In this document: positions 32,494 through 38,111 of the stretch, piece after piece
Layout: each line of letters starts with the position of its first letter
Numbering within the stretch: the stretch's first letter is position 1
From: a virus
Taxonomy: Duplodnaviria; Heunggongvirae; Uroviricota; Caudoviricetes
Virus record (IMG/VR): IMGVR_UViG_2529293078_000013
Length of the DNA stretch: 39,465 bases
Reading direction: 5' to 3' (one strand)
The notes under the pieces: model-generated
What the model was told of the DNA's origin: nothing
Databases searched by the model: none
What the model saw: the letters and a program-made list of their open reading frames with translations, nothing else
Position numbers and translations under genes: made by a program

Positions 32494-33036
32494 TTATTCC
32501 TCCGTCAGCGCCACATATTCAGAATGTTTAATTTCCTGGCATTCTTCAGGAATACACCCGTTTATTTCCCTGCCATAAGCGCCTACTTTAAACACCACGC
32601 ACAGGGCATCACGGGAGAGTGACGGGGTCCACCAGGAGTCCGTGTTAAACATGGAGGGGATTCTCATTACCCCCAGCTTTTCACAGAGCCAGACAAGGAA
32701 ATCAGGACGCTTTCTTAACTCGCGTTCAGCGGCTTCAACCATTGCGGCAATCGCCGGACCTTCAGGGCATGACTCATCAGGTCTGGCAATAAAGCACGGT
32801 CCGCCCCCGATAAAAGCCACATCATCGCGCTTACGCCAGCCCGCAGGCAGAGAACCAGAAAAATAAAACTCACTGATTACGTCCATGGCGAACGGCTTTA
32901 AGCGCAATCCGGCAGCGCCTGTATTTTTCAGTAATGCCCGAAGAATACTGTTGCGTAGCGGTAAAACAGTCTGTTGATATTTGGTGAAATATTTATTTGT
33001 CTGTACACGGTCTAATTTGAAATAAAAATATGCCAT
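32494..33036 (-). CDS. Hypothetical early protein
   Basis: 180-aa ORF directly downstream of gam. Confidence 0.5.
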   Translation of the reverse strand: MAYFYFKLDRVQTNKYFTKYQQTVLPLRNSILRALLKNTGAAGLRLKPFAMDVISEFYFSGSLPAGWRKRDDVAFIGGGPCFIARPDESCPEGPAIAAMVEAAERELRKRPDFLVWLCEKLGVMRIPSMFNTDSWWTPSLSRDALCVVFKVGAYGREINGCIPEECQEIKHSEYVALTEE

Positions 33037-33133: not shown

Positions 33134-33664
33134 TTATTTATTCAGTCCGGCGTCCTGTTCAAAAGGCTCGACATAAAAACTTTCAGCGCCTTTATTCACC
33201 TTAATACCGGCAATCCCTTTCACCGCATCCGGCTCCGCCAGGACCGCTTCCTTGTTCACTTCCTCTTTCGTGCGGATAAAACGCTCAAGGCCCATACGGC
33301 GCAGCATTTCAATCACACCTTCCACATCACGACTGACGCTGCATGATGGATTCCCCAGTCGCCATGACACCGTTCCGGTGGTCAGATTGGCAGTTTTGGT
33401 TTTGCCGCCGTTCGTCAGCTCATCACGGTTGGTTTTGCACCAGTCCTGAATCCCCTTAAAAAGCACTTTGATTTCTTTTTTAAGGTTTTCAATCTGCGGC
33501 GTATAACGGGCGGTGATTTCTGCCACTTCATCATTCATCGCTGTTTCCAGGCGCAGCGCCTCTCGCTGAATATCGCCCAGGGTGCGGATATCGCGGCTGA
33601 CCTCTTCACGGGTCTGCGGTGCCGCCTCTGCTGCGGCCTTTAATTTTGTAACGCGTTTTGCCAT
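33134..33664 (-). CDS. gam: Host-nuclease inhibitor Gam (Mu Gam/Ku-like DNA end-binding protein)
   Basis: LETAMNDEVAEIT..., NRDELTNGGKTKTANLTTGTVSWR, FIRTKEEVNKEAVLAEP closely match Mu Gam as I recall it. Confidence 0.9.
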   Translation of the reverse strand: MAKRVTKLKAAAEAAPQTREEVSRDIRTLGDIQREALRLETAMNDEVAEITARYTPQIENLKKEIKVLFKGIQDWCKTNRDELTNGGKTKTANLTTGTVSWRLGNPSCSVSRDVEGVIEMLRRMGLERFIRTKEEVNKEAVLAEPDAVKGIAGIKVNKGAESFYVEPFEQDAGLNK

Positions 33665-33675
33665 TTTGTTTTTCC

Positions 33676-33969
33676 TTATTGCAGTGTGCCTGATGCTTTA
33701 TGCACGCGGTGGCGTTTAATGATGGCATCCGCCCCAAAAGCCTGTACAGATGCCTGAAATTCCGCTGAGAGAAACTGAATAATTTCAGGACTGTGATACT
33801 GGAGAATACTTGCATAAACGCCACAGAGTGACGTCGGCCTGTTATTCGTATCACGTTCTGTTTTTACATCCACACCAATCTTTTCATGCACTTCAACACA
33901 GTCATTGCCTGCCGGTTTTTCGTCATGCGAAACATGCTTAAATTCAAAAATAACGCGTACTTTGCTCAT
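33676..33969 (-). CDS. Hypothetical protein, tandem paralogue 2 (start at internal Met 33969)
   Basis: Begins MSKVRVIFEFKH..., paralogous to the upstream MSKVVRIIFEYKEH... protein. Confidence 0.5.
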   Translation of the reverse strand: MSKVRVIFEFKHVSHDEKPAGNDCVEVHEKIGVDVKTERDTNNRPTSLCGVYASILQYHSPEIIQFLSAEFQASVQAFGADAIIKRHRVHKASGTLQ

Positions 33970-33973
33970 GGAA

Positions 33974-34246
33974 TTACCCCTGCTGATTAAATTCATTACC
34001 TTTAATAACCCCGGAACGCATGCTCATATCTTTCATGAGCGCACTGGCTTTCATTGCCACAAGTTCAGCAAAGTCTCTGCTTTCCGCGAGCATAACCACC
34101 CCAAAAATCATGGCGGGTCCATCACCTTTCTGCTTTATCCCGGTTGAACGTATGTCCAGACTTACCCCCATGCGCACTGTTCCATCAGCGTTTTTATGGA
34201 TAACGTGCTCCTTGTATTCGAAAATAATGCGTACGACTTTACTCAT
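33974..34246 (-). CDS. Hypothetical protein, tandem paralogue 1
   Basis: 90 aa; N-terminus MSKVVRIIFEYKEH shared with the downstream gene. Confidence 0.5.
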   Translation of the reverse strand: MSKVVRIIFEYKEHVIHKNADGTVRMGVSLDIRSTGIKQKGDGPAMIFGVVMLAESRDFAELVAMKASALMKDMSMRSGVIKGNEFNQQG

Positions 34247-34524
34247 CCTCTGGTCCTCGTTCTGTTTGGATAACTGACCCGGCGTCTGACCTCACGGCAG
34301 AACCGAATCATGGCATTAAAGGCTTCTTCCTCCGTCACCGCTTCCGGTATCCCCGGAACCAGTAACTGCTCCTGTTCATCACGTCCATGACGCGCCATAA
34401 CCTCAATCACATGCCGTACCGTGGCAGGCTTTCCGGCAACTATCGGCAATGCACCTTCCGGCAGGACGTAACCAAACTCAATAAGACCACTCGACCACGC
34501 CCATGCAATGAGATTTTTTTTCAC
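34243..34524 (-). CDS. Hypothetical early protein
   Basis: 93-aa ORF coupled to its neighbours. Confidence 0.45.
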   Translation of the reverse strand: MKKNLIAWAWSSGLIEFGYVLPEGALPIVAGKPATVRHVIEVMARHGRDEQEQLLVPGIPEAVTEEEAFNAMIRFCREVRRRVSYPNRTRTRG

Positions 34525-34525
34525 C

Positions 34526-34792
34526 TCACACCTCCCAGTAAACCGTGCAGCCGCTGATGCGGGTGGCCTTCACACGGCGGCGCAGGCCGTTGGTCTGTAT
34601 GGTGATTTCAATTTCACCGGTTCCCTGCACGTTGCCTACCGGCGGCGTGGTTTTCAGTGCAAAACGTTGCGGATAGCGCTTACTGCGTTCCAGTACCGCA
34701 CCGGCAAGTTCGGTCAGACGGCGCGCGCTGTTCAGGGAGTCGAATAAATTCATTTTGTTACCGCAGGATTGCATATTCATATAACACCTCAT
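34526..34792 (-). CDS. Hypothetical early protein
   Basis: 88-aa ORF; start may be an internal Met. Confidence 0.4.
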   Translation of the reverse strand: MRCYMNMQSCGNKMNLFDSLNSARRLTELAGAVLERSKRYPQRFALKTTPPVGNVQGTGEIEITIQTNGLRRRVKATRISGCTVYWEV

Positions 34793-35020
34793 TTAGCTGA
34801 CTTGTTTCGCACCAACAGAACGGCATATTCCGCTGTAAACGTCTGTCGCACCTTCGCGATCAAGTCCGGCAGATATCACCATTCGTGTGCGGTCATTAAA
34901 TTCAAAAAGTAAATCGCCACATTCTTTATTTTCGGCCAGTGAAATCACCTTCACGTTATCGAAATTAACCAGGTAAAAGCGTCCGTAAATATCAGGAATA
35001 TTAAATACCGCCATAATCAC
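34793..35020 (-). CDS. Hypothetical small protein at the Mu kil position (first gene after B)
   Basis: 75 aa, overlaps the B stop; Mu kil is about this size and here, but no sequence recognition. Confidence 0.45.
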   Translation of the reverse strand: MIMAVFNIPDIYGRFYLVNFDNVKVISLAENKECGDLLFEFNDRTRMVISAGLDREGATDVYSGICRSVGAKQVS

Positions 35021-35949
35021 ACCTGTGAGAGTAATTCAGGGTTGGTATAAACCTCTTTAAAGGCCGCATTAATATGTTTTTCTGTCAGCGCCGCGCCTTC
35101 ACCGCTGGCGGTGAGCCACGCCTGGTTAAGCGTATGTGTCAGAACGCGTAACGCTCCCGGCTTTTCAGCGATAGCCTGCATGACGGCCAGCTCGGCCTCA
35201 CCACTGATCCCCCACGCCCTGGCAATGGCCAGCACATCCGCCTTTTTGGCCTTGCGAAGTTGTTTTGTACGGGCAAGACGGCTGAACAGGCGCGATAAAT
35301 CATCAAAGGCGCGGCGTCCACCTTTAAACAATCCGCGCGGGTTACCAATAAGCACCATCCCGATCCCCGTGGCGTCCTGAATTGCCCGGAGTTGCTCCAG
35401 ACCGTCAATACCCAGATGATCCGCCTCATCCACAATCACCAGTCCACGCGTTCCCATCAGGCGACGGCGGATGGCGCGGGATAATGCCCCTTTGTTCGCG
35501 CGGGTGTAATCAATCCCCAGCGCATCGGCCAGCTCCAGCAGACACTCCGTGACGCTGGAGTGCGCGGGTGACAGGGTGATCATCCAGGTGTTTGGTTGCT
35601 CCTGGCAGTAATTACGGGCAGTGGCCGTTTTACCCACACCCGGTACGCCCACAATAACGTTAATACAGCCCATCAGACGAACCGCCTGAAACAGTGCGCG
35701 CAGCTCCTGGACTGTCTGCGTTTCCACAAACTGCGGCGGTTCCGGCAGTGCGCTTTGTTTATTCCAGTTTTCATACCAGGAACGCAGGGAAGCAGCCACA
35801 GCGGCGTTATCGCCTTTATATTTCCCCTTGCGGAAAGCCGATAATGTGCCGTCGGAAATTCCCGCCTCTCTGGCGATGGCATACTGCGTCAGTACGCCGC
35901 CATCAATAAGTTCATCAATGGTCTTGATTACATCGTTAATATCAGTCAT
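35017..35949 (-). CDS. B: Transposition ATPase / target DNA activator B (MuB-like AAA+)
   Basis: Walker A GVPGVGKT, Walker B LVIVDEADHL, and FVETQTV / KKADV...AW / KPGALR motifs match MuB as I recall it. Confidence 0.9.
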   Translation of the reverse strand: MTDINDVIKTIDELIDGGVLTQYAIAREAGISDGTLSAFRKGKYKGDNAAVAASLRSWYENWNKQSALPEPPQFVETQTVQELRALFQAVRLMGCINVIVGVPGVGKTATARNYCQEQPNTWMITLSPAHSSVTECLLELADALGIDYTRANKGALSRAIRRRLMGTRGLVIVDEADHLGIDGLEQLRAIQDATGIGMVLIGNPRGLFKGGRRAFDDLSRLFSRLARTKQLRKAKKADVLAIARAWGISGEAELAVMQAIAEKPGALRVLTHTLNQAWLTASGEGAALTEKHINAAFKEVYTNPELLSQV

Positions 35950-36020: not shown

Positions 36021-38111
36021 TCAGGCCAGCGGGTCATTTTCTTTTAATTTCGCTTCCAGCAACTGCAATCCCCGCTGGAAATTACGCTCGTATTCTTCAT
36101 CAGGTTCATCGTCAGCGACCGGTTGCTGAACGGTCACCGTATTACCCACAGGGCGGTATATGTTTTCCAGCCAGGGCTCCTGCGGCTTGTGCTCCAGCAC
36201 GTTGACAACCTCATCCTCGGCATCACGGATTTTTTCCTCTGCGCGTTTACGCATGCCTTTAAGGCGTTGCTGCTGTTTGTAGTATTCCGCGCTGACCGGG
36301 AAGGCTTCGCGTTTATTGCCGTCCCATACCGCCTCGCAAATCACGCTGCCATCCAGGCGACGTACGGTAATTCGTTCGGCATCATGAATGTCATAGCTGA
36401 TAAGCACCTTACGGCCATGCTCGTCACGCAGCTCGGGCGCGTAGTAAATATTATTCAGCCAGCGTATTTCACAGCGTCTTACAGGGCGTTCCACCATCGG
36501 CCGGAACATATCCCGCAGCTCAACATCGGACAGCCATTCAATTTCCGTGTCCTCTTCCGCCAGGCGTTTTTTTCTGAACTCCGCCGGGCTGTAATGCTTG
36601 CCGTTCGGCTTCACCGGTAATTCATCGTGCGGCCGGTTGTTGTACCACTCAACACCGTCACGAATGGCATCAATCAGTTCAGACCAGGACGGTAAATCAC
36701 GCATCGCTGACTGCTGCCGGGCGTTCAGCCGTTTGCCCTGTTGCAGGGCAGTAAATGCCGAGCGTAAATCGCGGTTGGTTTTGCGTAACGTCTCGCGATC
36801 TGCACCTTTCCCGAAATAGGTGCGGTATTTACGGGCTATGCGCATCGGTAATGTGCGGTTAAGCCGTTCGATAATGCCTCGTCCCTGCGGATTACCGGCA
36901 ATCCCGGTCGGGTGATTAATCCCCAGTCGCGGCAGTATCCCCACAACCTCCTTATCCAGGATGTCGGCGGTTTCCCCGGAGCCGTTATCCGAGTAATACA
37001 GAAACGGTTTGCCGTGATGGCGAATGCCGTGCTGTATGGCACCGGCTACGGCGAAAACATTTTCAGCCAGGTCAAGGCTCCAGCCCACCACAAAGCGCGT
37101 GCCACCGTCGATAACAAAGGTCACTTCCGGTGCAAATGGCCGACCGTGAACCGGGTGTGCGCATTTCAGCTTCATGCCGTGACCGTCACCAATCCAGACA
37201 TAATTCACCGGCATTCTGGACCAGTCGCGGCGCGTGAATCCCTCAAGCTGGCGGTATTCACTGCCGGTCACCCGGCCTTTTTGTTTCACCACTTCCGGCA
37301 GTTTCTTCATTGCGCGGCGAATGGTGTCATAAGACGGCATGATATCGAGCATATAAGGCTCATCAGCGTGCCGGTGCTGCCATTCAGCGACAAAATCCTC
37401 GTAAGCCTCGGTCATTGGTCGGCCGTTTGACTGGCGATACTGCGCCAGAAATTCGGGCAGCCAGTTAATATCTTCGGCTTTTATTTCCTGGCGCTTACCC
37501 GGTGCCAGTAAAAGCAGGCGTTCAGCGGCGTTCTGCGCCTTGTTAAAGGCCGCAATCCAGCGTTTCAGCGTGATTTCACTTAACGCGCGGCTGTTTCCCT
37601 TTTTGGCGTTCGCCGTCTCAACCATTGCCACAATGCGCTCGTCCAGCTGCGAACGTGCCAGGTTGTCAACGATAAACCGGATAGCCTTCGCACAGCTGAA
37701 ACCAGGTTGTTGCGCGACTTTCAGAACTTCGCTGACGATCGCGATTCGTGCATCAGCCACCTGGCGCTGGTTTTCAGTCAGGGCATTAAGGCGTTCGACC
37801 ATCAGTTGTGGTGATCCGCGATATGCCTCCACCGCATCAACCACGGCAGGCGAGCGTCTGGCCTTTGTCACCACTGGAGCCGGTGATTCATCGACTTTTT
37901 GAGTCATCAGTTGCAGGGCGTAGCGTTCACGTAATGCCTGCTGCGTCACTTCAGGTAAACAGTCGATGCTGTATTCAGTTGCTTTAGAGCCTGAGCGACG
38001 ACGGGAACAACAGCTTTTCCCTTGTACGTAACGTTGTAATGCCTGGCGAATACCTTTTGTTGTAGCAGGCATTCCGGGCGCGCCAATCAGTTCTTTTGCA
38101 ATGACATACAT
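36021..38111 (-). CDS. A: DDE transposase A (MuA-like)
   Basis: 696 aa; N-terminal DNA-binding region and central core (WIGDGHGMKL...GWSLD...) align in pattern with MuA; sits between ner and B. Confidence 0.9.
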   Translation of the reverse strand: MYVIAKELIGAPGMPATTKGIRQALQRYVQGKSCCSRRRSGSKATEYSIDCLPEVTQQALRERYALQLMTQKVDESPAPVVTKARRSPAVVDAVEAYRGSPQLMVERLNALTENQRQVADARIAIVSEVLKVAQQPGFSCAKAIRFIVDNLARSQLDERIVAMVETANAKKGNSRALSEITLKRWIAAFNKAQNAAERLLLLAPGKRQEIKAEDINWLPEFLAQYRQSNGRPMTEAYEDFVAEWQHRHADEPYMLDIMPSYDTIRRAMKKLPEVVKQKGRVTGSEYRQLEGFTRRDWSRMPVNYVWIGDGHGMKLKCAHPVHGRPFAPEVTFVIDGGTRFVVGWSLDLAENVFAVAGAIQHGIRHHGKPFLYYSDNGSGETADILDKEVVGILPRLGINHPTGIAGNPQGRGIIERLNRTLPMRIARKYRTYFGKGADRETLRKTNRDLRSAFTALQQGKRLNARQQSAMRDLPSWSELIDAIRDGVEWYNNRPHDELPVKPNGKHYSPAEFRKKRLAEEDTEIEWLSDVELRDMFRPMVERPVRRCEIRWLNNIYYAPELRDEHGRKVLISYDIHDAERITVRRLDGSVICEAVWDGNKREAFPVSAEYYKQQQRLKGMRKRAEEKIRDAEDEVVNVLEHKPQEPWLENIYRPVGNTVTVQQPVADDEPDEEYERNFQRGLQLLEAKLKENDPLA

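Follow-up and report, generated by a model that had tools for sequence, protein, structure and literature searches.

Two adjacent small genes in the early operon of a Mu-like prophage of E. coli are shown by profile comparisons to encode anciently diverged, full-length paralogues belonging to one small family of 75–100-residue proteins found in Mu-like phages of Enterobacterales. The same comparisons place gp7 of phage Mu (also called E6 or Mup07 and recently studied as Gnarl2) in this family. What is new here is the occurrence of the protein in duplicated, divergent copies; the kind itself was recently described through Gnarl2.

Results

Organization of the early operon

The window, a stretch of 39,465 nucleotides, is a complete Mu-like prophage of E. 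coli that lies on the minus strand and shares 96% DNA identity with the 'inserted Mu-like phage' of an Stx2c phage record. Its early operon runs in the order MuA (36021–38111), MuB (35017–35949), a 75-aa ORF (34793–35020; phrog_3375, of unknown function), a Kil-like gene (34526–34792; phrog_2679, E=7.8e-46), a 93-aa accessory gene (34243–34524; phrog_1518, which carries the label 'host nuclease inhibitor'), gene 1 (33974–34246), gene 2 (33676–33969), Gam (33134–33664; PF07352, E=1.5e-41), a gp10-like gene of 180 aa (32494–33036; phrog_2260, of unknown function and with no Pfam match) and a gp11-like gene, all coordinates being on the minus strand. A preliminary description of the sequence had reported two adjacent small genes beside gam, and both ORFs were indeed recovered at the positions given for them, with gam as the next gene downstream. 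Our locus comparisons, for which loci were taken from viral contigs and from a set with one genome for each species, were anchored on Gam, the conserved downstream neighbour, which inhibits host nucleases and binds DNA ends. At the other end of the region, the GTG start of the 75-aa ORF overlaps the MuB stop codon; Mu has no equivalent of this ORF at that position and its kil follows B directly.

Gene 1 encodes a protein of 90 aa that begins MSKVVRIIFEYKEH (WP_000049432.1-type; phrog_4107, E=1.1e-61), and gene 2 one of 97 aa that begins MSKVRVIFEFKH (WP_000049304.1-type; phrog_2230, E=6.2e-40). In gene 1 the opening residues, which form the predicted first ß strand, are encoded at 34205–34246 (minus strand); the corresponding 5’ segment of gene 2 (33934–33980, minus strand) additionally contains a GGGG Shine-Dalgarno sequence located within the last codons of gene 1. 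A mechanical listing of ORFs extends gene 2 over 33676–33996, but the true start is the ATG at 33969 and not the in-frame ATG at 33996, as supported by the Shine-Dalgarno sequence 7 nt before the former, by the family alignment and by the RefSeq coding sequence. RefSeq annotates coding sequences of 294 nt (WP_000049304.1) and 273 nt (WP_000049432.1) with the same boundaries, both as 'hypothetical protein'.

The genes are tightly packed. The ATG of gene 1 overlaps the TGA stop of the upstream 93-aa gene (ATGA), an arrangement that suggests translational coupling between the two, and the gene 1 stop codon is located 4 nt ahead of the gene 2 ATG. The two-gene region has no Rfam match and no promoter-like or terminator-like site on the minus strand, and the idea that the conserved 5’ ends contain an RNA element or an internal promoter was rejected. 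Both genes are translated from the long early transcript and are tightly coupled to their neighbours, and neither a promoter nor a terminator lies within them.

Similarity between gene 1 and gene 2

The pair had been described as a tandem, diverged set of paralogues with near-identical N-termini. The N-terminal sequences quoted for them are correct, and the contrast between the two parts of the proteins is marked: 9 of 13 residues are identical at the N-terminus and 6 of 76 in the remainder (17% overall). At the DNA level, the same codon is used at 8 of the 11 identical-residue positions in a hand alignment of the shared N-terminus. The similarity as a whole is above chance, with a BLASTP E value of 8e-4 (33% identity over 55 aa) and a Smith-Waterman score of 45 that was reached by 6 of 5000 shuffled sequences. 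When the first 13–14 residues are removed, the pairwise score is 22, compared with a shuffle mean of 21.6. Pairwise alignment, one of the checks that had been proposed, thus bears out the relationship at the N-terminus but leaves the remainder at chance level, so that on this evidence alone the pair comes close to the outcome named as fatal to the idea, namely similarity confined to 12 N-terminal residues of proteins with unrelated folds.

Profile comparisons lead away from that outcome. Homology beyond the N-terminus is visible only at this level: alignment of the gene 1 family with the gene 2 family in hhalign gave a probability of 87% (E=4e-6, 43 columns), and each family also matched a profile of the wider family from which both genes had been withheld and in which Mu gp7 was retained, with 96.1% probability for gene 1 (E=3.7e-9, 71 columns, residues 5–77) and 98.9% for gene 2 (E=1e-17, 75 columns). 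Leave-group-out HMMs likewise recovered gene 1 (2.7e-6), gene 2 (2.3e-17) and Mu gp7 (1.4e-7). Taken with the common topology predicted for the two proteins, these matches to a profile built without either gene sustain the description of the genes as diverged paralogues, and the similarity is neither confined to 12 residues nor accompanied by unrelated folds.

Structure prediction, also suggested at the outset, assigns both proteins a strand–strand–long helix topology, that is, a ß-hairpin followed by a helix. In the AlphaFold2 models the elements span residues 6–18, 24–35 and 44–73 of gene 1 (pLDDT 81.9) and residues 4–17, 26–39 and 48–77 of gene 2 (pLDDT 75.9); because both runs used one joint alignment, the agreement between the folds is supportive rather than independent. 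No convincing structural relative was found in the PDB or BFVD, and Pfam and NCBIfam scans of the two proteins returned no match. From a reading of the sequences, the hydrophobic stretches of both proteins are too short to span a membrane. Gene 1 is basic (pI 9.45) and gene 2 neutral (pI 7.0); since neither protein is acidic, the idea that they act as DNA mimics was ruled out.

The wider family and phage Mu gp7

Homologue searches with word-indexed methods and single proteins as queries returned close E. coli relatives only, and tblastn against 50,697 phage records matched only two Stx-phage records with an inserted Mu-like phage, without reaching Mu. The family is small: a profile built from the joint alignment retrieved only 28 clusters at E<=1e-3 from 1.84 billion representative proteins. 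Just upstream of gam, small ORFs that begin with the N-terminal pattern of gene 1 and gene 2 are present in Mu (gp7/E6), Kluyvera, an Enterobacteriaceae bacterium and Edwardsiella, among others. From end to end the family alignment remains coherent: strand one (V-I-F-E-F) is followed by a loop of variable sequence, by strand two, by a turn rich in D/E in which G-P is frequent, and by a helix with the pattern x-Y-A-x-I-L-x4-P-x-I-I. No other segment is as conserved across the whole family as the N-terminal strand (V-x-V-I-F-E-F), whose conservation extends well beyond gene 1 and gene 2. Within this set, gene 2 is a typical member and gene 1 a divergent one.

The link to Mu gp7 is an indirect one. 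On its own, Mu gp7 matched the family from which it and both window genes had been removed (95.1%, E=3.4e-8), and it gave a full-length match to phrog_2230, the PHROG of gene 2 (E=0.009). However, direct hhalign comparisons of the gene 1 and gene 2 families with Mu gp7 alone were not significant (E=0.35 and 0.66, respectively), and the identity to Mu gp7 is 17% for gene 1 and 21% for gene 2. The relationship is therefore a transitive one, established through intermediate sequences that were gathered with a profile itself containing gene 1 and gene 2, and the function may not be conserved.

Genomic position agrees with the assignment. A family gene occupies the slot between kil and gam in Mu (where the order is B, kil, gp6, gp7, gp8, gp9, gam) and in six of the compared loci (L162, L163, L082, L083, L094 and L081), and the window pair occupies the same place in its Mu-type early operon. 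The Kil-like gene forms the upstream edge of this slot in Mu, L162 and L163, and its counterparts in the latter two are recorded under PF26843 (Kil_protein). The 93-aa gene that separates Kil from gene 1 in the window is hypervariable or replaceable: it is missing from L162 and L021, in which Kil directly precedes the family gene. The counterpart of its last ~19 codons in L162 is a non-coding leader, a sign of a mosaic insertion joint.

Two further features of the family were noted. A 71-aa ORF in another locus (L046:3515–3730, or L046a), which starts MSKIVIELKD and lies directly upstream of a true family member (L046:3730–3960, = P0067), resembles a further tandem copy but does not pass a leave-one-out HMM test (E=3.8), and could be either a highly diverged copy or an unrelated protein. 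In addition, most family members end in a histidine (..KH, ..IH, ..TH, ..AH or ..CH) in a survey that covered P0081–P0099, L001:4784–5047, L046:3730–3960, L081:3709–3960, L082:2724–3026, L094:2688–2954 and L163:3911–4204; the window genes, which end in ..NQQG (gene 1) and ..GTLQ (gene 2), lack it. The last codons at several loci read CAC-TGA-GG, with GAGG forming the Shine-Dalgarno sequence of the next gene, but L082 and L094 use CAT-TAA, and the histidine may for this reason be selected at the protein level.

Distribution and variation among prophages

The two-gene region is present in 232 of 5426 complete E. coli genomes (~4%), in 226 of them at >=80% coverage. Among the matches listed, many are O157:H7 or other Shiga-toxin-producing strains, and O103:H2 and O111:H11 strains also occur. 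Some E. coli carry the locus at up to four places per genome, which implies several Mu-like prophages per chromosome; one place is on a plasmid. Presence and copy number in related prophages, whose comparison had been proposed, proved variable: of the 165 loci compared, two copies are present in 40, a single copy in 10 (contig ends cut some of these), and no family gene in the 115 others, which do bear Gam. A gene 1-type gene was never found without gene 2 among the 50 family-bearing loci.

Both genes evolve under purifying selection that is three to four times more relaxed than that on gam (dN/dS 0.30 for gene 1, 0.36 for gene 2 and 0.09 for gam), and at these values positive selection is not seen at the level of the whole gene. 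Together with the RefSeq annotation and the lack of any competing Rfam, promoter or terminator signal, the dN/dS ratios indicate that gene 1 and gene 2 are real genes. Across 39 haplotypes, nucleotide diversity is 0.10–0.17 in the gene bodies, 0.04–0.06 in the 5’ ends and 0.03–0.07 in gam. Gene 1 shows 0.06 at its 5’ end against 0.13–0.16 in its body, the 5’ end and the upstream leader being its least variable part, and gene 2 shows 0.04 against 0.10–0.17. Diversity in the flanking genes reaches 0.3–0.48 (0.35–0.48 in the 93-aa gene and 0.3–0.43 in the gp10-like gene); the near-invariant gam thus sits between two hypervariable stretches in otherwise near-identical prophages.

Gene 2 exists in two allele classes that are ~59% identical. 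Allele swaps in gene 1 take place independently of gene 2, as a comparison of the window with L162 shows: the gene 2 copies are 93% identical, whereas identity between the gene 1 copies is 55% over the whole protein and 48% once the conserved first 14 residues are set aside, and their opening 39 nt (13 codons) match exactly in DNA. Some prophages tolerate the loss of one copy, since L021 lacks gene 1 and has a single gene 2-type gene joined to the leader that normally lies ahead of gene 1 (L021:3597–3989), and gene 1 or gene 2 is frameshifted or truncated in L042 (3414–3879), P0050 and P0053.

The pair does not stem from a recent duplication. Gene 2 is 24–30% identical to the single-copy genes of other phages (P0086, P0089, P0097 and L082) and 17% identical to gene 1, and a rough neighbour-joining tree places gene 1 outside a clade formed by gene 2 and the single-copy relatives. 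As the two are thus not each other's closest relatives in the protein body, and do not behave as sister paralogues, either the duplication is old or gene 1 is fast-evolving.

The alleles do not sort by host serogroup. Hosts of types O157:H7, O103:H2 and O111:H11 share one allele (~99%), and each of the two allele classes of gene 2 is found in O157:H7 as well as in O103:H2, a pattern that weakens the idea of serotype-matched specificity.

Discussion

The experimental reference point for this family is Mu E6/Mup07 (NP_050611.1; NC_000929, 4784..5047), the product of the gene named gnarl2 (Silas et al., Nat Commun 2025, PMC12373910). Expression of Gnarl2 in the wild E. coli strains ECOR1 and ECOR22 shifts the O-antigen bands down and increases T5 infection by 10^5- to 10^6-fold, and the list of host-gene pairs affected by gnarl2 includes ECOR1 and ECOR22 but not ECOR3 (PMC12373910). 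The phenotype comes from heterologous expression, and affinity purification–mass spectrometry (AP-MS) of Gnarl2 gave no clear target; its authors proposed interference with a host O-antigen enzyme, with superinfection exclusion or the avoidance of re-adsorption to debris as the benefit (PMC12373910).

Because the homology, position and size of gene 1 and gene 2 match those of Mu E6, it is about an even call that their products are likewise small cytoplasmic proteins that bind host proteins and disturb O-antigen/LPS synthesis, given the ~20% identity over which the function is carried across. On this proposal each small protein would act not as an enzyme but by binding a host protein in the cytoplasm, and its expression early in the lytic cycle would disturb O-antigen/LPS synthesis; the changed cell surface could, for example, exclude related phages or prevent progeny virions from adsorbing again to debris. 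The N-terminal strand, the most constrained element, might form a structural core or an edge for dimerisation or docking, and the variable hairpin loop and the helix might set the choice of partner. More speculatively, the two diverged copies could widen the range of targets or divide it between them. Since the same alleles are found across different O-serogroups, a conserved component of the pathway is the more likely target, provided that the function holds.

A competing reading, less probable than this proposal but one that we take seriously, keeps the family assignment and changes the job: gene 1, gene 2 or both may bind a different host protein, such as a component of a defence system, a replication or repair factor or a division protein, with no connection to O-antigen, and the Gnarl2 phenotype would then be one of several functions of a set of fast-evolving binders. 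The 17–21% identity to Mu E6, the contrast between a basic gene 1 and an acidic Mu E6 (pI 5.6) and the failure of alleles to follow O-serogroup are all compatible with such a change, as are the AP-MS result for Gnarl2 and the variety of host processes hit by the neighbouring genes (septation for Kil, nucleases for Gam). Against it, the O-antigen phenotype is the sole experimental datum for any family member, and both the genomic slot and the predicted fold are conserved.

The two proteins could also work only jointly and not as independent effectors, for instance as a heterodimer formed through their near-identical N-terminal strands. The 40 loci with both genes, which include L162 with its 55%-identical gene 1, fit an obligate partnership, as does the constant company of gene 2 wherever a gene 1-type gene is found; the 4-nt spacing with translational coupling and the conservation of the shared strand, the most conserved part of both proteins, point in the same direction. 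We nevertheless regard this as unlikely, as most other lineages (Mu, L163, L081–L083 and L094) and the variant L021 have a single family gene, so that one copy suffices, and Mu E6 acts alone (PMC12373910).

Least probable is the view that the 13 N-terminal codons serve as a 'handle' for recombination or gene conversion, or as a cassette for translation initiation, placed in front of unrelated bodies: chance-level similarity outside the N-terminus, shared codons, low 5’ diversity, an L162 allele exchange that appears to start just past the conserved 5’ end and the direct fusion of the gene 1 leader to a gene 2-type coding sequence in L021 speak for it, but the two bodies can be aligned separately to the family profile, each across its second strand and helix, both proteins have a common predicted topology, and the N-terminal strand is the most conserved element across the entire family and not just in these two genes.

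Returning to the proposal of O-antigen/LPS disturbance by full-length paralogues, the preliminary description had linked their divergence to specificity diversification against variant host targets. This is a plausible hypothesis: Gnarl2 acts on some strains only, and the independent allele swaps of gene 1 speak for it, whereas dN/dS values below 1 in both genes and alleles that do not sort by O-serogroup speak against it. A more far-reaching version, which we hold to be improbable as a whole, would describe a two-protein Gnarl2-family module in the resident Mu-like prophage of O157:H7 and other Shiga-toxin-producing E. coli, in which the shared N-terminal strand is a docking or dimerisation edge and the diverged helices address two host targets; early expression would remodel the O157 (O103, O111) surface and with it susceptibility to phage or serum, and the conserved 5’ ends would in addition be recombination handles through which phages exchange effector bodies.

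The assignment has practical consequences. Two 'hypothetical proteins' carried by ~4% of complete E. coli genomes gain a testable function, in that they may alter the O-antigen barrier; the ~28 diverse cluster representatives, the motif and the predicted fold, now united around Mu E6/Gnarl2, can guide the search for targets. Should the copies differ in specificity, the pair would constitute a natural experiment in the diversification of a binder.

Comparison with known systems

Three PHROGs of 'unknown function', phrog_4107 (gene 1), phrog_2230 (gene 2) and phrog_10252 (Mu gp7), have been kept as separate groups and are joined here into one family, for which no Pfam or NCBIfam model was found. 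Mu gp7/E6 resembles the window pair in size class (87 aa), in its kil–gam slot and in its profile family, and the N-terminal strand motif is alike (MAKVIIEIK in Mu, MSKVRVIFEF in the window). It differs in being single-copy, where the window has two diverged copies, in its low identity to them, in its C-terminal histidine and in its acidic character; the O-antigen phenotype has been demonstrated for Mu E6 alone within the family.

Other small phage proteins offer functional parallels. Gnarl1 and Gnarl3, the latter of which binds GalU, are non-enzymatic accessory proteins of 40–90 aa that alter O-antigen on their own and may work like the window genes (PMC12373910); in contrast to these, however, they originate from lytic phages, they share a name by phenotype rather than by homology, and they are absent from the matches to the family profile. 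Pseudomonas phage D3, as cited in PMC12373910, provides a further case in Iap, a small protein that inhibits the O-antigen polymerase of the host and so embodies the concept proposed for the window genes. By the account given there, D3 seroconversion also requires two phage enzymes and involves another host and another type of phage, and the likeness to gene 1 and gene 2 is one of concept.
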